From Chthonomonadales bacterium (GTDB lineage Bacteria > Armatimonadota > Chthonomonadetes > Chthonomonadales > CAJBBX01), in NCBI GenBank assembly GCA_037443035.1, contig JBBIPC010000004.1, forward strand, positions 1 to 64,000: a stretch of DNA of 64,000 nt. The letters run 5' to 3'. The notes under the pieces are model-generated. The model saw nothing but the letters and a program-made list of their open reading frames with translations, had not been told where the DNA came from and searched no databases. The position numbers were made by a program, and so were the translations under genes. Of this stretch, positions 1-59,817 are shown piece by piece (positions within the stretch are counted from its first letter, which is position 1; each line of letters begins with the position of its first letter).

Positions 1-85
1 CCCCCCCCACCGCCCATTTTTTTTTTTATTTTTTGGGCTACCAGGGATTTCTACAATCTTTTCCTACATTACGCTCTTCCGATCT
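1..85 (+). other. Sequencing artefact: poly-C/poly-T run plus degenerate Illumina TruSeq adapter
   Basis: Ends in tctt ttcctacattACGCTCTTCCGATCT, matching adapter ACACTCTTTCCCTACACGACGCTCTTCCGATCT; homopolymer runs precede it. Confidence 0.93.
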
Positions 86-97
86 AGCGTTCAATCT

Positions 98-133
98 GTT
101 GGGGAGATCGGGCAGGCTCCTATCTGGTACATT
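98..133 (+). CRISPR. Single 36-bp type II-C CRISPR repeat GTTGGGGAGATCGGGCAGGCTCCTATCTGGTACATT; array truncated by the contig end; 86-97 is a probable partial spacer
   Basis: 36 nt, starts GTT, lies 50 bp from the cas2 stop; 23 nt are perfectly complementary to the anti-repeat at 4701-4723, plus a lower stem. Confidence 0.88.
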
Positions 134-165
134 GTTAGCCGCGCAGCGGAGCGGAGCGGCGGCGC

Positions 166-216
166 GAAAAACAGCCCGTCGGCTTAGAACAACGTGAGCT
201 GAACGGGCTGTTTTTC
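166..216. terminator. Long hairpin, candidate bidirectional terminator between CRISPR transcripts and the cas operon
   Basis: Perfect 14-bp inverted repeat GAAAAACAGCCCGT (166-179)/ACGGGCTGTTTTTC (203-216), plus inner 7-bp stem with G-U pairs. Confidence 0.55.
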
Positions 217-525
217 TGCTGCGCGCTCCTTCCGTCCGAAGTACACCTTCATCCGGTGGAACTGCAGGTCCGTCAGCGTCAAGAGCCTTACCTCGCCCTC
301 TGGAGGTAGCATCAGCCGCACTCGCTCGGCATGCACCCTTGCGTTCTCCTCGTTGGGGCACGGTCGGGCGTACACGCTGTACTGCACCATGACGAAGCCG
401 TCGTCCCGCAGTCGCTCCCGGAAGCGCGTGTACTCCCGCCGCTGGCCCTTGGTCTTTACCGGCAGGTCGAACATGGCCAGCACCCACATGGCCCGAGCAC
501 CCCCATAGACTAGAGGCTGGGACAC
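184..525 (-). CDS. cas2: CRISPR-associated endoribonuclease Cas2 (start GTG 525 or ATG 489)
   Basis: MWVLAMFDLPVKT, FVMVQYSVYAR; directly downstream of cas1; ends QLTLF. Confidence 0.95.
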   Translation of the reverse strand: MSQPLVYGGARAMWVLAMFDLPVKTKGQRREYTRFRERLRDDGFVMVQYSVYARPCPNEENARVHAERVRLMLPPEGEVRLLTLTDLQFHRMKVYFGRKERAAEKQPVQLTLF

Positions 526-1400
526 CTCAGCTTGCGTTCCTCCCCCGCCAGGCAACTGCGCAGACATGCTGCATACTGCTCCAGCGCCGTGAAGAGCGGG
601 TATCGTTTGCCATCCCAGGTCACTTCCGCCGTCAGCACCTCCAGCAGCTGGTTGCGCACGCCGGTGGTCAGCTCCTCGCCCAGCGGATGCTCTTCCGACA
701 CCCGCAAGACGTGCCTATCTGCCAAAGGACGCAACGGCTCCATGGCGTCGTCGGCCAGCGTGAACGCGTCGTACTGGTTCCGGTGGTGCACGCCCAACGC
801 CGGGTGCAACCCCGCGCCCACCACGGCCCGAGCAACTGCCCCCCGGATGAGTGCGTATGTGTAGTTCAGAGCAGCGTTGATCCCAGGACGTCCGGGATCC
901 CGTACGAACGCTTGACCGAACAGGGCTGGAAAGTAGATGCGTGCCGCCCGGCCCTCCAGGTTCTGAGGGTCTCCGCTGCCCACCTTCTTGGCCATGAGCC
1001 GCAAGCCGTGGTCATGACCACGGAGCGCCTCCAGCACGCTCGCCTGCGCCTGCAACTTGGCAATGACGATGCTCTGCCAGATTCGCTTCTTGCGCGGCTC
1101 CGTGGCCGCCATCTGCTGACGCAGGATGCGAGTATGGAGGGCGGCGGCCGCGAGGGGAAGCAACAGCCCCGCGGGCAAGTGGCGCGGTCCGCAGACGACC
1201 ACTGCCACGTTGGCTTCGGCCAGTGCCGCCAAGAGCGGCTCTGTGAACGTCGTCGCAGCATAGTCGCATACGAGCACTGCCAGGTCCTCCAACGGCACCC
1301 GGGCTTCCGCCTCGCCTTCGCGCTGCACCAGTAGCTGCAGGTCCTTGTAGCTCAGCCGGGCCGGCGTGCCGATCTGCACCACCCTACCGATGGTCGGCAT
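510..1400 (-). CDS. cas1: Type II CRISPR-associated endonuclease Cas1
   Basis: RVPLEDL, LEGRAARIYF, NAALNYTY, GVHH, LADDAMEPLRP motifs; between cas9 and cas2. Confidence 0.97.
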   Translation of the reverse strand: MPTIGRVVQIGTPARLSYKDLQLLVQREGEAEARVPLEDLAVLVCDYAATTFTEPLLAALAEANVAVVVCGPRHLPAGLLLPLAAAALHTRILRQQMAATEPRKKRIWQSIVIAKLQAQASVLEALRGHDHGLRLMAKKVGSGDPQNLEGRAARIYFPALFGQAFVRDPGRPGINAALNYTYALIRGAVARAVVGAGLHPALGVHHRNQYDAFTLADDAMEPLRPLADRHVLRVSEEHPLGEELTTGVRNQLLEVLTAEVTWDGKRYPLFTALEQYAACLRSCLAGEERKLRCPSL

Positions 1401-4400
1401 CGGGCGGCTCCGTGGAGATCACGGACCCGAGGGGGTCCAGGCACAGCCGGCGACGTAGGCACCGTAGGTCCGAGCGTCCTCGGATGCGGATGCGACGACT
1501 GCGGTCCTCACGGGCTTCGGTGAGCTGGGCGAGAGACACGTCCGGTGATCCATGAGCCCCACAGCTGAACTTCGCGACCCGGTACCATCCTGGTCGTTCA
1601 CCGGTCCACTCCACGATGTCGTCCTTGCACAGCGCCATGACGTAGCGCCACCCCTCCCATGGCGGCGTTCGGTCGAAGACCGGACGGCCCTCCACCGCCC
1701 GCCTGGCCGCCTCGATCATGGGTACGACGGTCATCTCGCGCCGATGGATCCCCCTTTCGTCCGGCTCGACCTTTTCCCAGATCACCGCGTGGTGATTGTT
1801 TCCCAGATCGTAGGCGGCCAGCGGGGTACCGTCCTCCCGCACTCGCACGAGCTGCTTGCCCACCACCACCGCCTTGTGCGGCCGCCCGTTTCTCCGAGGA
1901 GGTAACGCGGCCAAGGCTCTGCGCACCGTCGCGGCATCCGGTGGCTTCCGCGCCATTTCCCCGTGCAACGCTCCCTGGACGCTGCGGTTCGGGGCGAACA
2001 CGACGGGCATCTCTTTCACGACTTTCTGAACGTCCTGGCGCAGGGTCCGCCACGGCGCGGGGCTGAGACTGGCAGTGTGCTCATCGGCACGCTCCTTGGT
2101 CTTGTACCAGGCTGATAGCCTCTGAAGGGTGCTCCGTTCTGTGAGCGCCGTCACGATAGCGTCCAGTCCGTGATGGCGATGATCGGCGCGACTTTTCTTC
2201 TTCGCTATGACGCTCGCGCTGTCCGTCAGGGACGTGGCCTGTTCCTGCTCCTCGGCCTTCCCCCTCGTCTCATCGGTTTGCGGCTCCGGTATACAGTCCT
2301 CCAATCCCCACACGCGGCGCAATCGGGCTGTCAACTGCCCGCGCGAGACTTCTACGGGCACACCAAGCTTGGCAACCTCTGTCATAACAACGCGCGAGAT
2401 GTAGCGCGTGTCCGAAAGGGCTCGGTTCGTGAATTCTTCTGAATCCCACTCCTTCTGAAGGATTCGCCGCTGCTTTGCCTTGCTCATGGTCTTGAGGCGC
2501 GATACGTACTGCTCGATGTGAGGCCAGCGGTCGGTCTTGCCCAGCCATTCGTAGGGCGTCCGATCGCCCTTCTGCAAGTTCAGACCCATGGGGCAGATGG
2601 TCTTGTTGCTCAGTGAGTCGTCCCAGCAGCGGCTCCACGGCACGATATGCTCGATTGTGTACTGCTCAACGAGCTCCGACAGGCTCACTGGTCGATCAGG
2701 TTCGTACGGACAACGGCATCCTGCCTCCTTCCAGAGCAGAACCTTTCGGACGTTCTCGTCGTTCCTGCCGACGGGGAGGCCGTTGTCCTCCAACAGCTTC
2801 GCCGCAGCTTTCCGGTTCGTCTCGTTCTCTAGCTGTCTCTGCCGAATCCTCAGGCGCTCCTTGTTTGTTCGAGACATGTCGCGAGGCATTTCGATGCGAA
2901 TGCGGTCGGGCTTGCCGCAGCGATCGATTACGGCGTTGATGACGCGAAACGCCATCTTGACCGAACGTTGCACCACCGGGTTGCGCAAGTCCGGCAAGCT
3001 CTCCAGACGATCCACGATCTGTTCGGGCTGCTTGACGGTCGTCTCACCCTCTTTGCGGTACCCCGCCGCCACACACGCTTCCCAGTACGTGAGCCCGTTA
3101 CGCATGTGGGGCTCCAGTTCTCGCCACACCCGGTAGCAGTGTTGGCTGTAGCCCTCAGGGAACGTTGCCGACGCCAGCGCCCGCACTTCGTCAGTGGTCA
3201 AGCCAAAGTCCCGGACCAGTCCCTTGATGACGTTGTGGGGGTAGAACGCATAGAGCAATCGGTTGACGATCTCCTCCTGTTGCTCGGGCGCGAAGCCATG
3301 CCAGCGGTCGGCCCCCAGGATGCCGCGCATGACGGCCATCGTCTTGTTGCCCTCGAGGCCACTCGATCCAAGATCCTTACCGGCCGGTCGCGGCGTCCTA
3401 GCCACGGGCGTTTCGGTACCGGGTTCTGCGAAGAGCGTGCCTTGGCCGGCGGCTTGTCGGTGCTTCTCCGTGCGCGACTTACGCGGTCTTGCGGCTCGTG
3501 GACCAGCTTCATCACTGAATACGGCCTCCGAGCCAAAGCCGAGGAGTTCGCGAGCCTCATCCCACGAAAGGCGGTCCCGTCGCTCCAACTCGTCGGCCAG
3601 AGTCTGAACTTCCCCGCTGCGCAAACGCCGTTCTGGCAGTTCCGGCGCCTCGCGCACCTCTAAGTTGACGAGCTTCTGGAGCACACTGCAACGTTGGTGA
3701 ATGAGCGACGCCCGTGGCACACGCTTCCGATGTGGCATGAACTCGCATCTGCCGATGAGGCCCCGCTTGGACATGAGCGGCCGCTGATAGAAAATCGCGT
3801 GCCGCAGTCGGTCTCGCAGGTCACTTGTGAGGAGTTGAGGATGATAACGTTGCTGGGCTTCCCAGAGTTTGTCGAACTCCTCCTCATAGAGGATTCGGTC
3901 GGCGCGCCAGCCCAACGGGTCTTTCTTGCTTATGCGCCCGTTACGACGCTGCCCGCCCGCCCGGTAGCCATAAGGATAGTGCTCGGGATCCAGGAGGATT
4001 TTCGCGCACAACTCCCCTACCGTCCGCGCCTCGCCAGCCTCGATCCGTTTCCTTGCCTCAGCCAAACGTGCGAGCAGCTTGCTCTGCTCCTTGCGCTCCT
4101 TCGCGTCTGATGCCGGGAGTACCCCGTCTTCCGCGAGCTCGGCTTCCTCCAGGTGCGCAACACGACTGACCTCCAGTTGAAGACGCTGCTCGTACCACCT
4201 CTGAATGAGGTCTCGTGTGCTCATGTAGCCACGCCTACGGGCGATGTGGTAGATACACCGCCCGAACTCGTAGGGTGTGAGTTCCTCGTCCAGGCCTTTG
4301 GCGCGCAGGATCATGGGGTGGTACGGTCGTTCCCCTCCTGCGCGGTCGGAGCTCATCAGCGCTTCCCGATCGTGCGGGTCCTCTGGAAGCAGACCGTGCG

Positions 4401-4641
4401 CTACGAGCAAATGGAGAACGCTCCTCATGCGCTGGCGCTTGCGGCGGAGTTGGCGGCGGAATCGCCGTTTCTGCCCACGGATGTATCTGGTGGACACAAG
4501 GAGGCCATGCTTCTCTTCGGCACTTTCGGGGAAGACGTATACACCAGCGGCGATCTGGCGAGTGTCCGTGTCCTCGGAGCGTCGGACGAGAGCCCAACCA
4601 ACGCTGTTGGTTCCGAGGTCCAAACCAAGCACAGTTTCCAT
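1384..4641 (-). CDS. cas9: Type II-C Cas9, about 1085 aa from ATG 4641
   Basis: RuvC-I GLDLGTNSVGW, Arg-rich bridge helix, RuvC-II IRIEMPRD, HNH IEHIVPWS..DDSLSNK..NLQKGDRTP, RuvC-III DHRHHGLDA; AAAGGA RBS before ATG 4641; no csn2 or cas4. Confidence 0.97.
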   Translation of the reverse strand: METVLGLDLGTNSVGWALVRRSEDTDTRQIAAGVYVFPESAEEKHGLLVSTRYIRGQKRRFRRQLRRKRQRMRSVLHLLVAHGLLPEDPHDREALMSSDRAGGERPYHPMILRAKGLDEELTPYEFGRCIYHIARRRGYMSTRDLIQRWYEQRLQLEVSRVAHLEEAELAEDGVLPASDAKERKEQSKLLARLAEARKRIEAGEARTVGELCAKILLDPEHYPYGYRAGGQRRNGRISKKDPLGWRADRILYEEEFDKLWEAQQRYHPQLLTSDLRDRLRHAIFYQRPLMSKRGLIGRCEFMPHRKRVPRASLIHQRCSVLQKLVNLEVREAPELPERRLRSGEVQTLADELERRDRLSWDEARELLGFGSEAVFSDEAGPRAARPRKSRTEKHRQAAGQGTLFAEPGTETPVARTPRPAGKDLGSSGLEGNKTMAVMRGILGADRWHGFAPEQQEEIVNRLLYAFYPHNVIKGLVRDFGLTTDEVRALASATFPEGYSQHCYRVWRELEPHMRNGLTYWEACVAAGYRKEGETTVKQPEQIVDRLESLPDLRNPVVQRSVKMAFRVINAVIDRCGKPDRIRIEMPRDMSRTNKERLRIRQRQLENETNRKAAAKLLEDNGLPVGRNDENVRKVLLWKEAGCRCPYEPDRPVSLSELVEQYTIEHIVPWSRCWDDSLSNKTICPMGLNLQKGDRTPYEWLGKTDRWPHIEQYVSRLKTMSKAKQRRILQKEWDSEEFTNRALSDTRYISRVVMTEVAKLGVPVEVSRGQLTARLRRVWGLEDCIPEPQTDETRGKAEEQEQATSLTDSASVIAKKKSRADHRHHGLDAIVTALTERSTLQRLSAWYKTKERADEHTASLSPAPWRTLRQDVQKVVKEMPVVFAPNRSVQGALHGEMARKPPDAATVRRALAALPPRRNGRPHKAVVVGKQLVRVREDGTPLAAYDLGNNHHAVIWEKVEPDERGIHRREMTVVPMIEAARRAVEGRPVFDRTPPWEGWRYVMALCKDDIVEWTGERPGWYRVAKFSCGAHGSPDVSLAQLTEAREDRSRRIRIRGRSDLRCLRRRLCLDPLGSVISTEPPDADHR

Positions 4642-4666
4642 TTCCGCTTTTCCTTTCAGCGACATC

Positions 4667-4695
4667 TTGACAACCCTGCTCAACCGTAGTATACT
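4667..4695 (+). promoter_or_regulatory. Sigma70-type promoter of tracrRNA
   Basis: TTGACA (4667-4672)-17 bp-TATACT (4690-4695); predicted start about 4701-4702 coincides with the anti-repeat. Confidence 0.85.
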
Positions 4696-4700
4696 ATACT

Positions 4701-4830
4701 TGTACCAGATAGGAGCCTGCCCGTTCCTCCAACAAGGAGCGAATGCTCCGCAGGCTGACCCTTACGGGTCACCCGCAGGTGTTGACAGCGCCGAACAGAA
4801 TATGCCCCCAATAAGGGGGCGTTTCTGTTT
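4701..4830 (+). ncRNA. tracrRNA
   Basis: Anti-repeat TGTACCAGATAGGAGCCTGCCCGTTCCTCCAAC; nexus-like AAGGAGC-GAAT-GCTCCG; hairpin TGACCC-TTAC-GGGTCA; terminal hairpin AACAGAA..GCCCCC-AATAA-GGGGGC..TTCTGTTT. Confidence 0.9.
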
Positions 4831-4889
4831 GTAGTAGTCCGGCACCTCGTGTCCTACCCCCTCCCCTCCGCGGTACACTGTGCTCCGGT

Positions 4890-6668
4890 ATGAAGAGTCT
4901 CTTTCGCGCGTTGCATTACATCCGGCCCTACTGGCACGTCCAAGTGGCAGCGCTCGTCTGCGCTCTGGCGGTGACGGCTGTCCAGTTCGTCATGCCCTGG
5001 ATGAACAAGGTGCTCATCGACGAGGTCATGTTCCCCAGGGACCTCCCGCCGGACATGCGCCTCGGGGCCCTCTACCGGCTTGCTATCGTGGCAGGTTGCG
5101 CGCTTTTCGGTGGTACGGCGGTCAGTTTGCTGCGAACCTACCTCTTCGCACGAGCGGGTGAGAACGCCGCCGCGGACTTGCGGCGCGACCTCTTCCGGCA
5201 TCTGCACGCGCTGCCCATGGCGTATTACGACCGGCGCAAGACGGGCGGCATTATGTCGGTGGTCCAGAACGATGTGGAAGCGTTGCAGGGCTTGTACGCT
5301 TCGACGCTCGTGGACCTGATCACCAACGCGCTCATGGTCCTCGTCGCCTCGGCGGTTCTCATCTGGCGCAATACCGCACTGGCTATGATCGGTCTACCGG
5401 TGCCCGTTATCTTCGCCGTGGCCCTAGCCCTGTTCGGCAGTCCTCTGCGCCGTTCCGGGCGGCAGGTGCGCGACGACACAGGAGCAGTGCAGGAAGTCCT
5501 CCAGGAGAGCATCGCCGGTGCCCGGGAGGTCAAAGTATTCACCCGCGCTGAGGTCGAGTTGCGGCGCTACATGGACCGCGTTCTGCGGCTCGTCCGGTCG
5601 CGCATCCGACAGGCCGTGCTAGGCAGCGCCAACAGCGCTGTGGCAAACGTCATCGCCATGGGTGGCATGTTGACGGTGCTCATCCTGGGCACGCGTCTGG
5701 TCATCCGAGGGGCCATGTCGCCGGGCGACATCATCATGTTCATGAGCGTGCTCGGCATGCTGTTCGGACCCGCAGGCACCTTCGTGAGCATGTACACGGC
5801 CATCGCCATCGCCGTGGGTGCGGCCGACCGTATCTTCGACCTCGTAGATAGCGAGCAAGAGCGGGAGCCACTGGAACCAGCACCCGTCGGGACCCTGCAC
5901 GGCGACGTGCGCTTCGAGAACGTCTCGTTCGCCTACGATGCAGAGAACGGCGAAATCCTGCGGGATATCAATCTGAACGTGCGAGCCGGCGAGGTGATCG
6001 CGCTCGTTGGCCCAAGCGGCGCAGGCAAGACGACTCTCGTCTCGTTGCTTCCGCGGCTCTACGATGTGACGTCGGGTGCCATCTATCTAGATGGTCGAGA
6101 TATTCGCAGTTTCAGCCTTACGGACCTTCGCAGAGCTATCGCAGTAGTCCCTCAGGAACCGTTTCTTTTCGGCACAACTGTGGCAGAAAACGTACGTTTC
6201 GGACGCGAGGATGCCACAGACGAAGAAGTAATGGAGGCCGCGCGAGCTGCCAATGCCCACGAGTTCATCATGGCATTACCGGCCGGTTACAAGACGCAGG
6301 TCGGAGAAAGAGGCGTTCGCCTTTCCGTTGGGCAGAAGCAGCGTATTGCTATCGCGAGGGCTATCCTGCGAGATCCTCGGGTCCTGATCCTGGACGAAGC
6401 CACGTCAGCCCAAGACTCGGAATCGGAACGGCAAGTGCAGGAGGCTATGGCACGTCTCCTGAGAGGACGTACGTCGTTTATCATCGCCCACAGACTCTCG
6501 ACCATTCAGCGAGCAGATCGCATCGTAGTGATCGAGAATGGCACCATCGCCGAGGTAGGCTCCCACGTGGAGCTACTGGCCCGCAACGGGACCTACGCGC
6601 GCCTCCATGCGCTGCAGTTCGGCGGGATTCTGGTTTCGGACGCTGCAGCCCCAGCAATGCCGCAATGA
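4890..6668 (+). CDS. ABC exporter, fused permease/ATPase (MsbA-like fold)
   Basis: Hydrophobic TMD; GPSGAGKT, LSVGQKQ, ILDEATS, IAHRLST. Confidence 0.93.
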   Translation: MKSLFRALHYIRPYWHVQVAALVCALAVTAVQFVMPWMNKVLIDEVMFPRDLPPDMRLGALYRLAIVAGCALFGGTAVSLLRTYLFARAGENAAADLRRDLFRHLHALPMAYYDRRKTGGIMSVVQNDVEALQGLYASTLVDLITNALMVLVASAVLIWRNTALAMIGLPVPVIFAVALALFGSPLRRSGRQVRDDTGAVQEVLQESIAGAREVKVFTRAEVELRRYMDRVLRLVRSRIRQAVLGSANSAVANVIAMGGMLTVLILGTRLVIRGAMSPGDIIMFMSVLGMLFGPAGTFVSMYTAIAIAVGAADRIFDLVDSEQEREPLEPAPVGTLHGDVRFENVSFAYDAENGEILRDINLNVRAGEVIALVGPSGAGKTTLVSLLPRLYDVTSGAIYLDGRDIRSFSLTDLRRAIAVVPQEPFLFGTTVAENVRFGREDATDEEVMEAARAANAHEFIMALPAGYKTQVGERGVRLSVGQKQRIAIARAILRDPRVLILDEATSAQDSESERQVQEAMARLLRGRTSFIIAHRLSTIQRADRIVVIENGTIAEVGSHVELLARNGTYARLHALQFGGILVSDAAAPAMPQ

Positions 6669-12360: not shown

Positions 12361-14010
12361 ATGCAGTTGGGTTACGTATCCCTCTATCGCAAGTATCGTT
12401 CCCAGAGCTTCGCCGAACTTCTGGGCCAGGAGCATATCACCGCGGTCCTGAGGAACTCCATCGCTCAGAAGCGGATCGCACACGCGTATCTCTTCTGTGG
12501 CCCTCGAGGCTGCGGCAAGACAAGTACGGCGCGACTCCTCGCCAAGGCACTGAACTGCACTGCGGCGGACGAACCTACCCCGGACCCATGTGGAGAGTGC
12601 TCCATGTGCCTCGCTATTCGCGACGGCCAGGCCATGGACGTGGTAGAGATGGACGCCGCTTCCGAAACGGGGATCGATGACGTTCGAGAGAAGATCATCG
12701 AGAACGCACACTACGCCCCTGTGCAGGCACGCTACAAGGTCTACATTATTGACGAAGTGCATGACCTCTCGCAAAAAGCCTTCGACTCCCTGCTCAAGAC
12801 CATCGAGGAACCTCCCGCGCATGTTGTATTCGTGCTCGCCACAACCGAGGCACACAAGGTGCCGGTCACCATACGTTCCCGCTGCCAGCGCATGGACTTC
12901 CGGCGAGGGTCACTGGCTGATCTTCATGCCAACCTCGAGCGCGTGGCGCAAGCAGAGGGCGTGGAGTACGACGCCGAAGCGCTCTTTCTCATCGCCCGCG
13001 CGGCCGAAGGGTCATTTCGTGACTCGTTGAGCCTGCTCGAGCAGGTCCTGGCGGTGGGCGGAACGCGTATCACGGCCGATACTGTGCGCACCGCTATCGG
13101 AGCGGTTACCGCCGACATGCTGGATGCGGTGGTGACCGCGGTTCATGCCAAGGATATGCGTGGCGTGCTCGATGCTGCCGCCCAGCTTATCGCTTCCGGG
13201 ACCGATGTGCGGCAAGCGGTGATCGCCCTTCAGGAGCATCTGCGCGATCTGCTCGTGCTAACGTACACGGGTTCCGCTGAGGCTCTGGGGGGCGTGCCCG
13301 CTGAACGGGTCGAGATCATGCAGGAGCAGAGCAGGTGGTTCCGACCGCAGCAGATGCTCGCCATGTTAGGCGTCCTAGCGGAGGCGGAGCGGGACCTGCG
13401 CTACACGAACCAGCATCGCCTGGTCATGGAACGCGCTCTGTGGAGGCTTGTCGTGGCCACAGACCGCGCCGCATCCGTGGAGGCGCCGCGAACCGTAGCA
13501 GACCGGGCACCCACTGCATCCACGCCTGTGTCGTCGTCTCGGCCGACCGTTCCGCCTGTCTCCCAAGCCGAACACCCTGATGAGTCCGTTGTGCAAGCCG
13601 AGGGCAGAGACGACGTAACCCTCGAAATCCTACAGCGCATCTGGCCGCGCGTGCGACAGCGGGTCATACAAAGGGCGCCTTCCGCGGCAACGGTGCTTAC
13701 GGACAACGTGGTAGTAGCCGAGCTCAGTGGCAAGACGATGACCTTGCAGTTTCCCAGTGCTTTTCTCAGAGATCGCGCAGATCGTCCGGCATCACGCGAA
13801 ATCATCGAGAAGGCGCTGCAGGAGATACTGGGTATTGGCGGGTACCGTGTCCGGTGCGCACTCAAGCCCACGGAATCAAGGCAGGACGCGACGCTCGCGT
13901 CCAGCTCCGGGAGCAGCGTACGTCCGGCCGTTCTGCCGCTGCTCGAAGAGGTTGCACGAGTCCTGGATGGCGAAGTGGTCGATACCAAGGGCATCGAGGA
14001 AGAGTCTTGA
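12361..14010 (+). CDS. dnaX: DNA polymerase III subunit gamma/tau
   Basis: LYRKYRSQSF, GPRGCGKTS, CGECSMC, IIDEVH, SRC. Confidence 0.97.
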   Translation: MQLGYVSLYRKYRSQSFAELLGQEHITAVLRNSIAQKRIAHAYLFCGPRGCGKTSTARLLAKALNCTAADEPTPDPCGECSMCLAIRDGQAMDVVEMDAASETGIDDVREKIIENAHYAPVQARYKVYIIDEVHDLSQKAFDSLLKTIEEPPAHVVFVLATTEAHKVPVTIRSRCQRMDFRRGSLADLHANLERVAQAEGVEYDAEALFLIARAAEGSFRDSLSLLEQVLAVGGTRITADTVRTAIGAVTADMLDAVVTAVHAKDMRGVLDAAAQLIASGTDVRQAVIALQEHLRDLLVLTYTGSAEALGGVPAERVEIMQEQSRWFRPQQMLAMLGVLAEAERDLRYTNQHRLVMERALWRLVVATDRAASVEAPRTVADRAPTASTPVSSSRPTVPPVSQAEHPDESVVQAEGRDDVTLEILQRIWPRVRQRVIQRAPSAATVLTDNVVVAELSGKTMTLQFPSAFLRDRADRPASREIIEKALQEILGIGGYRVRCALKPTESRQDATLASSSGSSVRPAVLPLLEEVARVLDGEVVDTKGIEEES

Positions 14011-22385: not shown

Positions 22386-22940
22386 CTAGAATCGGACTCC
22401 GACGGCTACCTTGATACCATCCGCGCGGAGGGCGTTTCCCTCGTCATCGTAGAAGGCGCTCACCCAGTCGTACGAGGCTTCGATGAACAGCTTCGGGCCT
22501 AGCTCGATTCCGGCGATGAACTGAGCGCCCGGCTTCACAACTGCGCCGCTGTACCGACTGTTCATGAAGTAGGAACCCACTCCCAGGCCACCGTATAGCC
22601 GCGCTGTCTCGGATGCGGTAGAAATGGGCCATGTCACCTTGGCTAGGACAGGTATCGTAAAGACCGTACGGCCTTCAGTGGCGCGAAAATCGAAGTCCAC
22701 GCCAAAGCGGATCGTACCGTTGTCTGGTCGGTAACGAAAACCTGGGTCGAGATCGATTCCAGCGTACCACCACTCGCCGGTTGCCTGGTCACGCATAGTG
22801 CCCTGGCCAGGGAAGAATGCACCGCACTTGAGCGATACCTGCCACCGACCTGGCTCGTTCTGCGCCGGCGCCCTCAAAGGCGCCGACGCCAGCACCGTTG
22901 CTGCAACACTCATGGTGAGAATACGAAACAGCGTTCTCAT
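22386..22940 (-). CDS. Small outer-membrane beta-barrel protein
   Basis: Signal peptide from ATG 22940, alternating beta pattern, LYGGLGVG, C-terminal VAVGVRF. Confidence 0.75.
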   Translation of the reverse strand: MRTLFRILTMSVAATVLASAPLRAPAQNEPGRWQVSLKCGAFFPGQGTMRDQATGEWWYAGIDLDPGFRYRPDNGTIRFGVDFDFRATEGRTVFTIPVLAKVTWPISTASETARLYGGLGVGSYFMNSRYSGAVVKPGAQFIAGIELGPKLFIEASYDWVSAFYDDEGNALRADGIKVAVGVRF

Positions 22941-22997
22941 GCTTTCGGTTCCCCTTCTCGTATGTGACCGGCTGCGAGCCAGTGGATTACCAATCTC

Positions 22998-23048
22998 AGT
23001 ATAGCCCTCACCTCTAGCGTTGTCAACACGGAAACGCTCTGCTACAAT
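22998..23048. promoter_or_regulatory. Divergent sigma70 promoters with overlapping -35 elements
   Basis: Minus strand: TTGACA (23026-23021)-17-TATACT (23003-22998). Plus strand: TTGTCA (23020-23025)-17-TACAAT (23043-23048) with extended TG. Confidence 0.7.
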
Positions 23049-23081
23049 GAGAGGACTTCCCGCTTCCGAGGAGGGGACGCA

Positions 23082-24593
23082 GTGACAGCTACGGATCAGG
23101 CCATCGTACCAGTACTGGAGATGCGGGGTATCTCCAAGACCTACCCGGGTGTCAGAGCACTGGACACCGTGAGTCTCGAGGTCCGCAAGGGCGAAGTACA
23201 CGCGCTCGTAGGCGAGAACGGCGCTGGCAAGTCCACGCTGATGAAGATACTAGCAGGCGCACAGCTCGGCGACTCCGGGGAGATCCGCATCAATGGCCGC
23301 ACCGTCGAGATCGACAGCCCGCAGAAGGCTATGGACCTCGGGATCTCCATCATCTACCAAGAGTTCAACCTTGTCCCCTACCTCAACGCGGCGGAGAACA
23401 TCTTTCTCGGCAGGGAACCTCGCGCTCGCATACCGGGTTTCGTGGACTTCCGGACGATGTATGACGAAGCGCAGCGTGTCATTGACCGCCTGGGCGTTGC
23501 ACTCGATATTCGCGTACCAGTGAACCGCCTCTCCATCGCCCAGCAGCAGATGGTGGAAATAGCCAAGGCAACATCCCGTCAGAGCATGATCATTGTGATG
23601 GACGAGCCGTCGGCGACACTCACAGAGCACGAACTCGAGAGCCTGTTCTCTCTTATTCGGCAGCTCAAGGCACAGGGTGTGTCCATCGTGTACATATCCC
23701 ATCGACTCGAGGAGGTTTTCGAGATCGCAGACAGGGTCACTGTGCTACGGGACGGCAAGCACATCGCCACGCGCGACGTCAGCGACTTGACGCGCGAAGA
23801 AATCATCCGATACATGGTGGGCCGCGAGCTGACACAGATGATGCCAAAAGTCCCGGCGCCGCTAGGCGATGTCGTTCTGGAGGTGCGGAACTTGCGGCGG
23901 AAGGACAAGCTACACGACATCAGCTTCGCAGTTCGCCGCGGTGAGGTCCTGGGACTGGCCGGGCTGGTCGGCGCTGGTCGCACGGAGCTGGCGCGTGCGA
24001 TCTTCGGTGCTGATCCAATTGACGGCGGTGAGATCCTCCTAGAGGGCAAGCCGGTCAAGGTTCGCTCTCCCCAGGACGCCATCCGCCTAGGGATTGGCCT
24101 GGTTACCGAAGACCGCAAGAACCAGGGTCTGGTCCTTGGTATGATGGTACGGGAGAATATCACGCTGGCCAATCTCAGCGCCTTGTCGCGCCTGAACTTC
24201 CTCATGCTCGCCCGAGAACGGGAGGTGGCGCAGAAATACGTCGCAGATCTGAGCATCCGACCGCCATCCATCGAGCGAGCAGTCCAGAATCTGTCGGGTG
24301 GCAACCAGCAGAAGGTCGTTCTGGCGAAGTGGCTCTTCACCCAATCCAAAGTGCTCATCTTCGACGAGCCGACTCGAGGCATTGACGTAGGAGCCAAGGC
24401 GGAGATCTATCAGTTGATGAACGAGCTGGCAGCGAATGGCGTGGCAATCATCATGATCTCCTCGGAACTGCCCGAGGTCATCGGCATGAGCGACCGCATC
24501 CTCGTCATGCACGAAGGACGCATAGCAGGAGCACTCTCTGCCTCCGAGGCCACTCAGGAGCGCGTTATGCACCTCGCCACGGGGGGTCGCTAG
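23082..24593 (+). CDS. Sugar ABC transporter ATP-binding protein (RbsA/MglA type, two NBDs)
   Basis: GENGAGKSTLMK, MDEPS, ISHRL, LSGGNQQKV, FDEPTRGIDVGAK. Confidence 0.95.
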   Translation: MTATDQAIVPVLEMRGISKTYPGVRALDTVSLEVRKGEVHALVGENGAGKSTLMKILAGAQLGDSGEIRINGRTVEIDSPQKAMDLGISIIYQEFNLVPYLNAAENIFLGREPRARIPGFVDFRTMYDEAQRVIDRLGVALDIRVPVNRLSIAQQQMVEIAKATSRQSMIIVMDEPSATLTEHELESLFSLIRQLKAQGVSIVYISHRLEEVFEIADRVTVLRDGKHIATRDVSDLTREEIIRYMVGRELTQMMPKVPAPLGDVVLEVRNLRRKDKLHDISFAVRRGEVLGLAGLVGAGRTELARAIFGADPIDGGEILLEGKPVKVRSPQDAIRLGIGLVTEDRKNQGLVLGMMVRENITLANLSALSRLNFLMLAREREVAQKYVADLSIRPPSIERAVQNLSGGNQQKVVLAKWLFTQSKVLIFDEPTRGIDVGAKAEIYQLMNELAANGVAIIMISSELPEVIGMSDRILVMHEGRIAGALSASEATQERVMHLATGGR

Positions 24594-54229: not shown

Positions 54230-56014
54230 TTACCTCTTGAACCTCCGATCGATCTCGCTATATGGCACCAACACTGCGGCAGGCCGTCCATGCGGGCAGA
54301 AATGCGGGTTCCTTGTCTCGGCAAGCTGCCGCAAGAGACCGGTCATTTCTTCGACCGAGAGCGCATCGCCCGCCTTCACAGCCATGCGACAAGCGTGGGC
54401 GATGGTCACTTGGTCGCGATCCACCACCAACCTTCGCGCTACCGTCTGGTGCACCAGCTCGTCCACCATATCGCGCAGAACGGCCTCCTGCTGCCCCTGG
54501 CGCAGGAGCGATGGCACGGCACGCACAACGAGCGCCCGACCGCCGAAGGGTTCCAGCTCCCAACCCGCGGCTCGGAAGTCGTCCAAGCGTCGACTCACTA
54601 ATGCGAACTCCGCGGCCCCAAAGGACACGGTCAGGGGTACTGCCAACCGCTGGCTCGAGACGCCGTGCTCCGTTTGCTTTGTAAGTAGCCGTTCGTACAG
54701 CACCCGCTCGTGTGCCACGTGCTGATCAACTAGCACAAGACCCTGCTCAGTCGCCGCAACTATGTACGTATTGTTGGCTTGGCCGAGCACCCGGAAATCG
54801 CGGAGCATATCCGCCAACACCGCCGCGTCGCCGGTCTGCTCAGCACCGCCGAGCGCAAGACGATCGTCATCGAAAAGGCTCTCTGCCGTGGCGCTCGCTG
54901 GCGTGCGCCCGAACGCGGCTAGAGATGTGGTCACAGCCTGTACGGTGGATCCAGAATCCCTTCGCGGAACCTGCCACGCCCCCCCGGGGGTCAGTCCTGC
55001 AGAACGCACCTCGGGAAGCAACCCGTGTCGTACCAGTGCACGCCGAACCGCCCTTCCTAAGATCGCATGGACCTCGGATTCGTTTCGGAATTTCACTTCG
55101 AGCTTGGCTGGATGGACGTTCACGTCCACCTGTTCCGGATCCATCTGCATGTGAATGCAGCAGATTGGATACCGGGCTTCCGGCGTAATGTCGCGGAACG
55201 CTTGCTCCACAGCATGAGCGAGGACACGACTTCGCACGGGCCGACCCGACACGACAAAGAGCTGATGAGTCCGCCCGGGCCGACTTGCCTCGGGCGTGCC
55301 CACATAGCCATCCACCCGCAAGTGCGGCTCCTCCTCAGAGATCGACACGAGTTTGCGTGCGACGGCCCGCCCCCAGATGTTGGCCAGGACTCCCACCAAG
55401 TCACCGGTACCCGGTGTCGAGAGGAGCTCCTGGCCGTTGTGCACGACCCGTACCACGATGGATGGGTGCGCTGCCGCGAGCATGCTGACCGACTCGACGC
55501 ACCTGGTAAGCTCCGTCGCCGTCGTCTTGAGGAACTTCAGGCGGGCCGGAGTGTTATAGAACAGGTCCTCCACGATAACCGTAGTGCCATCGCGCCCTGT
55601 TCGGTCTGTGAGCTTCTCCAGTACGCCACCATGGATCGTGAGTTCCGTGGCGACAGGGCTGTTCTTGGCCTTCGTGATGAGCGTGAAGTGCGAAACCGAC
55701 GCGATGCTAGGAAGCGCCTCACCGCGGAACCCGAGTGTCTTTACCCGCTCCAGGTCGTCCGCCGATCGTATTTTCGAGGTCGCATGGCGCTGAACCGCCA
55801 GGATCGCGTCCTCGGCGTCCATCCCACAACCGTCGTCGGAGACCTCGATCCGGCGTTTGCCCCCCTCCTCCAAGATGACCGTGATATGGGAAGCGCCGGC
55901 GTCAATGGCGTTCTCGACGAGCTCTTTGACTGCGGACGCAGGCCGTTCGACCACCTCACCTGCAGCGATGCGGCTGGCAGTTACGTCATCCAGCAGAACG
56001 ATGCGTCCCCCCAC
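54230..56014 (-). CDS. mutL: DNA mismatch repair endonuclease MutL
   Basis: IAAGEVVERP, GFRGEAL, DVNVHPAK, DQHVAHERVLYE, ACR, CPHGRP. Confidence 0.97.
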   Translation of the reverse strand: MGGRIVLLDDVTASRIAAGEVVERPASAVKELVENAIDAGASHITVILEEGGKRRIEVSDDGCGMDAEDAILAVQRHATSKIRSADDLERVKTLGFRGEALPSIASVSHFTLITKAKNSPVATELTIHGGVLEKLTDRTGRDGTTVIVEDLFYNTPARLKFLKTTATELTRCVESVSMLAAAHPSIVVRVVHNGQELLSTPGTGDLVGVLANIWGRAVARKLVSISEEEPHLRVDGYVGTPEASRPGRTHQLFVVSGRPVRSRVLAHAVEQAFRDITPEARYPICCIHMQMDPEQVDVNVHPAKLEVKFRNESEVHAILGRAVRRALVRHGLLPEVRSAGLTPGGAWQVPRRDSGSTVQAVTTSLAAFGRTPASATAESLFDDDRLALGGAEQTGDAAVLADMLRDFRVLGQANNTYIVAATEQGLVLVDQHVAHERVLYERLLTKQTEHGVSSQRLAVPLTVSFGAAEFALVSRRLDDFRAAGWELEPFGGRALVVRAVPSLLRQGQQEAVLRDMVDELVHQTVARRLVVDRDQVTIAHACRMAVKAGDALSVEEMTGLLRQLAETRNPHFCPHGRPAAVLVPYSEIDRRFKR

Positions 56015-56018
56015 AGAT

Positions 56019-58742
56019 CTAAGCCCTCTCCCTAGCCTTCCGCTGGAGTTCGTTCAGCTTGACCAAAGCCTCGATCGGTGTCAGCGTAGTCAGGTCCAGT
56101 ACCTGCAGCTCTTCGATCACAGGGTCTGGCTCCAAGTCGAACAACGTGAGTTGTACTTGCTTGCGACGCTCCTGAACAGCCACATCCTCGGACAGTTCGC
56201 GCGCTCGGCCACGCGTGCCATTCCGCTCCAGGTCTTGCAGAATCTCCCTGGCGCGACCCACGACTGCCGGCGGTACTCCTGCCATCCGCGCAACCTGAAT
56301 GCCGTAGGACTTGTCGGTGCCACCTTCGACGAGGCGATGGAGGAACAGCACCCGGTCGCCCTGTTCCTTCACTGCCACGCGGTAGTTCCGCACGTTCGGT
56401 ATCCGCCTGGCCAGGTCGTTCAGCAGATGATAGTGAGTCGCGAACAGCGTGCGGCACTGCAACTGGGCAAGGTACTCCGCTACTGCCCACGCGATGGAGA
56501 CGCCGTCGTAGGTGCTCGTTCCTCGTCCGATTTCGTCGAGTATTACCAGCGACCGCCGTGTTGCGTTATTCAGAATGTTCGCCGTCTCGGTCATCTCGAC
56601 CATGAACGTGCTCTGACCGGTGGCGAGTTCGTCATGAGCTCCCACCCGAGTGAAGACGCGATCCACTAGTCCAATCGAAGCCGAATCCGCCGGTACGAAG
56701 CTGCCCATCTGGGCCATGATCGTGATGAGCGCAACCTGGCGCAAGTACGTAGACTTGCCCGACATGTTCGGGCCAGTAATGACGTGCAGGGAGCCGCCGT
56801 TGCAGTCCAGCACACAATCGTTCGGCACGAACGATGCGCGTTCCGATATCTGCTCCACCACAGGGTGCCGGCCGCCACGGATCTCGATGCGCTCGGTGTC
56901 GTTGACCTGCGGACGCGTGTAGCGGTTCCGCACAGCCACCTCCGCCATGCTCGAAATCCAGTCTAGCTCGGCGAGAGCACGCGCCACTCCTAGGAGGTCG
57001 GCCGATGCTTCGGAGACGCGCTGCCGCAGTTGTCCAAGGATACGGAACTCCAAGTCAAGCGCTTTCTCTTCCGCTCCGAGGACTCGTGCCTCTTGCTCCT
57101 TGAGCTCAGGGGTAATGAAGCGTTCACCGTTTGCCGTTGTCTGTTTCCGGATGTAATCGGACGGCACTTTGCTTAGATTGGGCCGTGTAACCTCGATGAA
57201 GTAGCCGAATACAGCATTGAAGCCCACCTTCAGCGATGCGATGCCCGTTCGCTGTCTCTCCGTTGCTTCCAGACTAGCGATCCACGACTTGCCCTCTTCC
57301 GAAAGCTTGCGTAGCGCGTCCAGTTCTGGTGAATACCCAGTCCGGACGATGCCGCCTTCGCGCACACCGGCAGGCGGATCATCCACAAGCGCCCGCTTCA
57401 GCATGTCACGTATCTCGGCCACACTGGGAGGCACGGCAAGGGAACTCCGCTCGCGTGCCAGCATGGTACCAGAGCACGCACTAGGGCTAGCGGGCTTGGG
57501 CCGCAAGACGTCTGCGACAGAGCGCACCAGTGCGGCTGGGCAGGACTCGATAGCGTCCGCCAGTGGCTCGAGCCGCTCCAGGGACAACCGTAGCGCCACC
57601 AGATCCCTCGCTCCCGCCAACCCCGCGGCCGCCCTCGATACAAGACGCTCCACGTCATTCACGTGACGGAGCAAGTCCCGAACATCACCACGTAAGATCT
57701 CATCCTGAGCGAAGGTTGCCACTGCATCCAACCGCTTCTCTATTGTCTCCACGTCGAGGAGGGGCTCTTCGATTCGCCTCCGAAGCAAGCGAGCACCCAT
57801 GGGTGTCTGCGTAAGGTCGAGAACGCTCAGCAGTGTTCGCGACCGGCTTCCATCCACGAGCGACGTGGTCAGCTCCAGGTTACGCCGTGCCACAACATCC
57901 AGGCCCATGAACGAGCGCGTCGAATAGGTGCTTAGCGTGGTGATGTGCTGCAGCGCTCCGACTTGAGTTTCGCGCAGGTACTCCAAGATCAGCGCGGCTG
58001 CTTCGACACCAGCGGTGTAGTCTTCGCAACCGAACCCGCGTAGGCTAGCAGTCTGGAAGTGCTGCATCAGCACATCTCGAGACGTGCGGGACCGAGGAAC
58101 GTTGGTGGGAGAGTAGACCGTGACGGGTGCCGAGACACTGCTCTTGATCATGTCCGCAAGCTCCATGTCACCATCGGGAACGAGAATCTCGGCCGGTTCT
58201 AGCCGCAGGATCTCCTCCAGCAGTTCATCTGTCCGTTCCTCTCCGGTCAGCTCCGTCGTCAGAAACTCCCCTGTCGTAACGTCCACAACGCCCACCCCGG
58301 CGACAGGGTCCCTTACCACCGCTGCCACAAGGTAGTTGTTGGATCGGCTGTCCAGCAATGCCTCATCGAAGACCGTCCCTCGGGATAGAACACGCGTGAC
58401 CCGCCGCTTCACCAGCCCCTTGGCCGTCTTCGGATCCTCCACCTGATCCATCAGCGCCACGCGATAGCCTCGTCGAAGAAGCCTTGCGACGTACCGCTCC
58501 ACTGCATGGTACGGTACACCAGCCATGGGCAGGCGCTGTGGTCCGTCGTCCTTACCTGTGAGAGTGATGCTCAGCTCATCAGCGATGGTCACGGCATCTG
58601 GTCCATACGCCTCGTAGAAATCGCCGACGCGCATGAGCAGGAGGACTCCCGGGTGCTCTTCTCTTGCCCGGAAGTACTGCTTCATGAGGGGGGTGTTCGG
58701 TATCACCGGCCCGTTGTCCGCCGTGCACGATGCCTTGGCCAT
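56019..58742 (-). CDS. mutS: DNA mismatch repair protein MutS
   Basis: TPLMKQY, GDFYE, TGPNMSGKSTY, STFMVEM, DEIGRGTS, SYGIQVA; C-terminal QLTLF. Confidence 0.97.
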   Translation of the reverse strand: MAKASCTADNGPVIPNTPLMKQYFRAREEHPGVLLLMRVGDFYEAYGPDAVTIADELSITLTGKDDGPQRLPMAGVPYHAVERYVARLLRRGYRVALMDQVEDPKTAKGLVKRRVTRVLSRGTVFDEALLDSRSNNYLVAAVVRDPVAGVGVVDVTTGEFLTTELTGEERTDELLEEILRLEPAEILVPDGDMELADMIKSSVSAPVTVYSPTNVPRSRTSRDVLMQHFQTASLRGFGCEDYTAGVEAAALILEYLRETQVGALQHITTLSTYSTRSFMGLDVVARRNLELTTSLVDGSRSRTLLSVLDLTQTPMGARLLRRRIEEPLLDVETIEKRLDAVATFAQDEILRGDVRDLLRHVNDVERLVSRAAAGLAGARDLVALRLSLERLEPLADAIESCPAALVRSVADVLRPKPASPSACSGTMLARERSSLAVPPSVAEIRDMLKRALVDDPPAGVREGGIVRTGYSPELDALRKLSEEGKSWIASLEATERQRTGIASLKVGFNAVFGYFIEVTRPNLSKVPSDYIRKQTTANGERFITPELKEQEARVLGAEEKALDLEFRILGQLRQRVSEASADLLGVARALAELDWISSMAEVAVRNRYTRPQVNDTERIEIRGGRHPVVEQISERASFVPNDCVLDCNGGSLHVITGPNMSGKSTYLRQVALITIMAQMGSFVPADSASIGLVDRVFTRVGAHDELATGQSTFMVEMTETANILNNATRRSLVILDEIGRGTSTYDGVSIAWAVAEYLAQLQCRTLFATHYHLLNDLARRIPNVRNYRVAVKEQGDRVLFLHRLVEGGTDKSYGIQVARMAGVPPAVVGRAREILQDLERNGTRGRARELSEDVAVQERRKQVQLTLFDLEPDPVIEELQVLDLTTLTPIEALVKLNELQRKARERA

Positions 58743-58749
58743 ATGCCGA

Positions 58750-58778
58750 AGGATACCCAGACACCGGATGTACGTCAA
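58750..58778 (-). promoter_or_regulatory. mutS promoter, probably leaderless
   Basis: TTGACG (58778-58773)-17-TATCCT (58755-58750)-7 nt-ATG. Confidence 0.6.
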
Positions 58779-58830
58779 CCGCAGATCCACGGTGAGGGAC
58801 TCACGGCTTGGGGTATACTGCATTCGAGTC

Positions 58831-58920
58831 GCACACACCGCACCGACGTCGAGATTGCGCAGGGTCGCTCCAAGGAGGGGTGCTGCCAACCGTTGAGGCG
58901 TCGGGAGGACACAACCAGGA
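58831..58920 (+). promoter_or_regulatory. rpsB (S2/t44-like) autoregulatory leader RNA
   Basis: CACACAC start, CCGACGTC/GGCGTCGG pairing, central GGTGC, GGAGG 3' end; TATACT at 58814-58819. Confidence 0.6.
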
Positions 58921-58929
58921 GGTAACCGC

Positions 58930-59817
58930 GTGGCAACCCTTACGATGAAGGAGCTCCTCGAGGCAGGAGTTCATTTCGGTCATCAGACTCGCCGGTGGAA
59001 CCCCAAGATGAAGCGCTACATCTATGGGGCACGAAACGGCATCTACATCATCGATCTTCATCAGACCCTCAAGCTCTACGAGACGGCGCAACAGTTCATT
59101 CAGGACGTCGTTCTGAACGGCCAGCACGTTCTCTTCGTCGGTACGAAGAAGCAAGCACAGGACGCCATCCAGGAGGCTGCCGTTCGTTCTCGCCAGTTCT
59201 ATGTGAACCAGAGATGGCTCGGTGGCATGCTGACGAACTTCCAGACCATCCAGTCGCGGGTCAAGCGGCTTCAGAGCCTCCGCCAACTGGAGGCAGACGG
59301 TACGCTCGAGAGGCTCACGAAAAAGGAAGCGAAGGCGCTCGTCGAGGAGCGGATCAAACTGGAGCGGTATCTTGGCGGTATCGAGAGGATGCAGGTTCGC
59401 CCGGGAGCACTTTTCGTTGTGGACCTCAAGAAAGAGCACATTGCAGTTGCCGAAGCGCGCAAGCTGGGCATTCCCATTGTTGCGATCGTTGATACCAACT
59501 GCGATCCCGACGAGGTGGATTACGTCATCCCCGGCAATGACGATGCCATTCGCGCCATCAAGCTCATCGCGGGCAAGCTCGCCAGTGCCATCGTCGAGGT
59601 CATGCAGGAGCGCTGGGATATGGAAGCTGAGGCGCCCGTCACGACGGTCGAGGAAGTGGCGCTGGAACCAGTGGAGGTTACAATGACCGAGGAAGATAGC
59701 CTATTCCTTGGTGACGAAGAGGACGAGTACGCTCGTATGGCCCAACGGCTGGAGGCGAGTGCACGCTCGTTGGACGACGATGATCTGGTCAAGGATGAGG
59801 ATTTCGAGGAGGAATAG
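58930..59817 (+). CDS. rpsB: 30S ribosomal protein S2
   Basis: [36 protein letters not shown]. Confidence 0.98.

Follow-up and report, generated by a model that had tools for sequence, protein, structure and literature searches.

In CRISPR-Cas systems of type II-A, the REC3 domain of Cas9 contacts both Csn2 and Cas1 within the acquisition complex, Csn2 is likened to a sliding clamp by the authors of that structure, and prespacer selection in type II-C systems without Csn2 or Cas4 is stated there to be open (accessible text of 10.1101/2025.06.12.659244). REC2 of II-C Cas9s corresponds to REC3 of large II-A Cas9s such as SpCas9 (PMC10400994, accessible part), and a profile match of II-C REC2 to SpCas9 residues 502-566 was obtained here (E=0.008). 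The REC lobe of NmeCas9 is described as dispensable for stimulated acquisition and needed for interference (PMC12477760, accessible part), and foci of Escherichia coli Cas1-Cas2 as dependent on active replication (PMC13244154, accessible part). The bacterial clamp-binding motif is given as Q-aliphatic-x-[LM]-[FL], its Leu-Phe pair anchoring in subsite I and its flanks being mostly acidic; position 2 is tolerant, yet Gly there lowers affinity (accessible text of PMC11139829). Homologous transposases have newly acquired such motifs at differing positions (PMC4549789), and TnsE is mentioned together with the replisome (PMC11300857), each according to the accessible part of the source.

The window analyzed here, a 64,000-nucleotide stretch of a Chthonomonadales (Armatimonadota) genome, begins at a contig end and carries a cas locus that, by sequence, is a type II-C CRISPR-Cas system. 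On the minus strand, cas9 (1384..4683; 1099 aa from a TTG start, 1093 aa from the first ATG) is followed by cas1 (510..1400) and cas2 (184..489; 101 aa from a probable ATG at 489), the last two identified from the open reading frame map and Pfam; by the same means, csn2 and cas4 are absent at the locus. A single 36-nt CRISPR repeat lies directly after cas2 (98..133, plus strand), and a probable tracrRNA lies upstream of cas9 on the plus strand (4698..4835, ends approximate), with an anti-repeat at 4701 followed by hairpins; the pairing of anti-repeat and repeat is calculated at -64.4 kcal/mol. Rfam gives no match within positions 1-5000 of the window, probable tracrRNA included. There are no further copies of the repeat in the assembly at up to four mismatches, leaving one repeat and one anti-repeat only, and the CRISPR array is probably cut off by the contig end. 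Positions 1-85 resemble what we take to be low-complexity and sequencing-adapter sequence, which would explain the missing array. The RuvC and HNH catalytic motifs (GLDLG, IEMPR, HHGLDA and IEHIVP) are intact in sequence, and the Glu preceding the HNH His is common to the two closest homologues. The gene order, the lack of csn2 and cas4 at the locus, the probable upstream tracrRNA, the repeat length and the catalytic motifs are all shared with type II-C systems, and the best PDB match of this Cas9 is Nme1Cas9 (6jdq and relatives, E=2e-62). The stretch between RuvC-III and the PAM-interacting region is very short (about 1840-1990, minus strand), a feature common to the closest homologues; judged against other II-C Cas9s, we presume it to be a reduced WED domain.

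Unlike Nme1Cas9 and its relatives, this Cas9 has a private insertion of about 31 aa in REC2 (3364..3456, minus strand, ends uncertain by a few codons), which contains the candidate beta-clamp-binding motif QGTLF (3430..3444, minus strand). An earlier note had described a loop of about 50 residues interrupting the REC lobe; positions 3358-3507 do encode the 50 residues that it quoted, but only some 31 of them are inserted. The first 17 or so, a basic stretch (3457..3507, minus strand), match a loop of all 16 closest homologues (42-65% identity), while the 31-residue block is missing from all 16. That note's description of QGTLF as the sole hydrophobic island is borne out, Leu-Phe being the only adjacent hydrophobic pair in the 50 residues. 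The segment from the preceding helix to the GNxT motif spans 75 aa here versus 26-56 aa in 256 other homologue rows (258 less the query and an ORF picked in error, with some duplicates among the remainder), none of which has the insertion. No second carrier was found in the protein database, in 50% representatives or in metagenome and genome contigs, nor among 60 relatives and 400 genomes of the phylum; no RNA run is listed as containing the locus, one sequencing run has short identical pieces of it, none of them spanning the insertion, and an atlas search with the loop returns only Cas9 REC clusters (best score 0.84).

The residues just before the loop align to Nme1Cas9 252-333, and the insertion point falls after those aligned to 332-333; residues 331-341 of Nme1Cas9 are unmodelled in the cryo-EM structure (PMC10516666, accessible part). 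By this alignment, the block is a private insertion at a probably flexible site of REC2, the disorder of the loop being judged from composition and homology. The 30 residues flanking QGTLF are 3% hydrophobic, the lowest value among 90 QxxLF sites of the host proteome (a crude set of 2828 ORFs). The immediate context reads AAG-QGTLF-AEP, where the 15 preceding residues carry a net charge of +5 and the eight following ones a net charge of -2. GC at third codon positions is 0.61 over the 31 codons of the insertion versus 0.74 for cas9. Tandem duplication of the preceding segment was considered as the origin of the Leu-Phe pair and discarded as unsupported (p=0.65 for DNA, p=0.36 for protein, with 793 of 5000 shuffled sequences scoring as high on the profile).

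QGTLF has the Gln1, Leu4 and Phe5 of the bacterial clamp motif (QL[S/D]LF), and sits in a probably exposed loop of low hydrophobicity, its C-terminal flank being acidic; it differs in having Gly where an aliphatic residue is the rule at position 2, in its strongly basic N-terminal flank, and in belonging to an RNA-guided nuclease. At the proteome rate, QxxLF is expected in a 31-aa stretch with a probability of about 0.002. Across a whole proteome, 0.06-0.9 (strict) or 0.4-5.7 (loose) QxxLF matches in a low-hydrophobic context are expected, depending on the cut-off, and across 106 Cas9 proteins QxxLF occurs at about background (16 observed versus 13.6 expected). In one homologue, P0114, a QSTLF just upstream coincides with a conserved structural Phe of the segment; such matches therefore do arise by chance.

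The flanks of QGTLF come close to the form taken by the internal clamp motif of DnaE1 (Pol III alpha) in this phylum, (A/S)G-QxxLF-(G/D/E), which was obtained at 27 of 30 loci and has Gly at position -1 in 22 of the 27 and at position 2 in five. With a profile built from 28 non-host DnaE1 motifs (window -4..+3), the Cas9 site comes second of 1,113,816 host positions, after the host's own DnaE1; three other profile windows place it third, second and seventh. Over the window -10..+6 it is third of 1,088,364, the likeness thus spanning about 20 residues. The Cas9 site is also the best of 89 host QxxLF sites, none of 249 other Cas9s reaches its score in the main window, and redrawing the remaining positions from the loop with Q, L and F fixed gives p=0.004. 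These figures are to be read with the fact that the DnaE1 profile, like the REC2 window used below, was picked after the likeness and the matches had been noticed. Against a profile of Cas2 tails (34th of 89, p=0.40) or of the other Cas9 motifs (12th of 89, p=0.21), QGTLF is ordinary.

Most Cas9s examined lack a clamp-type motif, and similar motifs are found in REC2 inserts of four lineages besides this one. Among 407 Cas9s scanned, two strict motifs lie outside aligned columns, namely QGTLF and a QLSLF in L169 (Cytophagales), whose insert was kept by no relative among 350 genomes of the order and 30 of the family. Other long REC2 loops carry QASLSF (L145), QGQLDI (P0228) and QVQLDI (P0255), or partial forms such as NDTLF (P0232); in L145, whose cas9 has an in-frame stop, the motif lies in a 22-aa insert missing from the near relatives L422 and L423. 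When inserts are defined by HMM, QxxLF or QxxLxF is present in 2 of 31 REC2 inserts, versus 0.06-0.10 in shuffles, and in none of 678 elsewhere, versus 2.4. When they are defined by neighbours, with the query excluded (564 sequences, a few rows being duplicates), the counts are 2 of 28 in REC2, versus 0.11 in shuffles (P=0.006), and none of 188 outside REC2, versus 0.71 expected; QxxLF alone gives P=0.053, and a loose pattern is seen in 3 of 28, versus 0.49. The two strict hits are those that prompted the test, which makes these P values flattering. In a blind set of 65 new Cas9s there is no true loop motif, the one match probably lying in a folded helix after the loop; the set included a near-miss, L265. 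Matches of the type QPxLF/QPxLL in long Bacteroidota-type Cas9s, and QxxLF right after GNRT, were set aside as probable ends of folded helices. On a quick tree of 65 rows, of which six are labelled as carriers (L414 has a motif but is unlabelled), well-supported branches force at least five changes in motif presence. The motifs occupy three different loop sites, and therefore arose independently.

A search from L265 led to a Bacteroidota clade of 13 Cas9s (62-89% identical), eight of which (L313, L365, L366, L368, L369, L371, L382 and L385; match at about 1501-1920) keep QxxLF within a basic-motif-acidic insert of the REC2 hairpin. Two members have lost the Phe only, and three, on separate branches, the whole motif with a deletion of 2-3 residues. 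In the ten without a deletion, Q and L are constant while positions -2, -1, 2 and 3 each take 5-6 different residues, these ten having been chosen by a pattern that itself requires Q and L; their Q and L codons vary synonymously. This clade is the best system for experiments on the Cas9 motif.

The clamp-type motif is far more regular in Cas2. The Cas2 of the present locus ends in QLTLF (187..201, minus strand), a canonical match by sequence, and 118 of 123 distinct Cas2 hits of the loci studied (L002-L174, L268-L312) end in Q-hydrophobic-x-[LMFI]-[FL], with Leu at position 2 in 80 and Gly in none; of the five exceptions, three look like frame fragments, one ends in QLEFY and one is truncated. 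In a viral set, 23 of 28 Cas2 hits end likewise. The Cas2 of the one csn2-bearing locus lacks the tail motif, as does that of one locus without annotated csn2, csn2 status having been read at these two loci. QLSLF binds clamps at 0.6-3 uM, and QLELF and QLSFF bind too (accessible part of 10.64898/2026.05.27.728225). A Cas2 (L466) in the genome (G172) whose Cas9 gained QASLSF has a premature stop exactly at the tail Gln; as the cas9 there is interrupted too, a decaying system explains this more simply. As a lead, the Cas2 tail surpasses the Cas9 site in strength and generality, the latter being among its rarer echoes. A literature search covering mainly papers outside subscription journals turned up no account of such a motif in either protein, and an earlier description is possible, especially of the obvious Cas2 tail.

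The host has a single DnaN (contig C3 of its assembly, 22473-23672, minus strand), in which Met replaces the His of TDTHRL, kept in 16 of 19 family members, and Arg and His stand at the positions of Asn and Tyr in solved clamps; mapped via E. coli numbering, these are presumably residues of the Gln pocket. The host DnaE1 motif lacks the Gln, which makes the preferences of the host clamp uncertain; related changes are seen in a few family members. Further candidate clamp motifs of the host are QLTLF in MutS, near the C-terminus with an acidic flank, QRLLF in ImuB, and QPTLF in a 739-aa protein that starts MQPTLF and adjoins dnaE2 and imuB-like genes (contig C5, 42689-50591). The genes mutL, mutS and dnaX lie in the same window as cas9 (54230-58970, minus strand, and 12361-14010, plus strand), which is probably a coincidence.

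Taken together, these comparisons lead us to lean towards QGTLF being a weak, accessory binding motif for the beta-clamp (DnaN) that arose anew in a flexible surface insertion of REC2. Counting against it are the want of any relative with the insertion in which selection could be traced, the diverged clamp pocket of this host, the affinity-lowering Gly and the ease with which such motifs are lost. The argument is carried by the flanks and by the recurrence, not by the five-residue match alone, and the caution of the earlier note that such a match may be fortuitous was justified: at the scale of the scan, the strict expectation per proteome already accommodates it. Neutral growth of a tolerant surface loop, with QGTLF a chance match picked from many thousands of windows, is a serious if rather doubtful alternative, consistent with the insertion being a singleton, with the widely varying length of the loop in homologues, with the background frequency of QxxLF in Cas9s, with Gly at position 2 and with the negative blind replication. 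It does not account well for flanks whose likeness to the DnaE1 motif goes further than Q, L and F, nor for the recurrence of the basic-motif-acidic layout in REC2 inserts of other lineages when none of the 188 inserts elsewhere has such a motif, and the tandem-duplication origin of Leu-Phe that would have eased it is unsupported.

It is improbable, though worth weighing, that the island was selected for another partner, by packing on REC2, contacting Cas1-Cas2 directly or shielding REC2 from anti-CRISPRs, with the basic part binding guide RNA or DNA. AcrIIC4 binds to REC2 (PMC10516666, accessible part), the homologous REC3 contacts Cas1 in II-A, as noted above, and the constant L and F of the Bacteroidota clade would also fit packing; however, neither packing nor shielding predicts that the Gln is kept three residues before the Leu while its neighbours vary in that clade, or that unrelated lineages share the Q..LF spacing at three different loop sites. 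Capture of a fragment of a dnaE-like gene, the likeness then reflecting origin and not present function, would agree with the length of the DnaE1 resemblance and with the lower third-position GC of the insertion; we consider it very improbable, as the insertion matches no DNA in the host genome but itself and no protein, and viral contigs contain no match to a degenerate pattern.

If QGTLF is a clamp-binding motif, its Leu-Phe pair would occupy the host clamp's hydrophobic subsite I, the acidic residues that follow may assist, and the loop would weakly tether the Cas9 complex to freshly replicated DNA on which the clamp is loaded. Since the dimeric clamp offers two pockets and Cas2 has QLTLF at its end, the likeliest use would be to bring Cas9, which reads the PAM, and Cas1-Cas2 together on replicating invader DNA, the contact being made by the Cas9 region that in type II-A touches the ring of Csn2. 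A second possible use is a faster target search, which, given the result for the NmeCas9 REC lobe, remains equally testable. In either case the motif would tune efficiency without being required: it must be accessory, because most Cas9s examined lack it and because stimulated acquisition can do without the REC lobe in NmeCas9. The proposal of the earlier note that effector and adaptation module both dock on the clamp thus gains from the DnaE1 likeness, the recurrence in REC2 and the nearly universal Cas2 tail, but as regards Cas9 it does not hold for the system as a whole, the motif being rare and labile, and lost wholly or partly in five of the 13 Bacteroidota proteins.

A broader and more tentative proposal, which we put forward as possible but would not yet expect to hold, is that type II-C systems, for want of Csn2, employ the beta-clamp of the host as a ring. 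Cas1-Cas2 would dock through the tail of Cas2, and at least five lineages of Cas9, the present one included, would each have evolved a clamp motif independently, on the REC face that in type II-A is turned towards the ring. If so, PAMs would be read and spacers captured together on replicating DNA that carries the clamp, and immunity would be biased towards replicating invaders. Because Cas2, and more than once Cas9, has such a motif, a two-residue change (LF to AA) would offer a handle on a possible direct physical link between type II-C immunity and the replisome. The Cas9 site, if real, would be a docking site for a host protein of a kind not found in print, a natural case of recurrent motif origin, and possibly a route for steering Cas9 to replicating DNA in bacteria.

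The proposed arrangement has its closest counterpart in the type II-A Cas9-Csn2-Cas1-Cas2 complex, where Cas9 touches a DNA-encircling ring through REC3, which is homologous to REC2 of II-C. In type II-A, however, a dedicated Cas protein forms the ring and is bound by way of folded surfaces, whereas here it would be the host clamp, reached through short peptides. The candidate motif also resembles those of IS transposases and of Tn7 TnsE, which are short, weak, placed in unstructured regions, and have appeared independently at different places; in contrast with these motifs, which are mostly C-terminal and experimentally tested, QGTLF is internal, belongs to a defence effector, and is a candidate by sequence.
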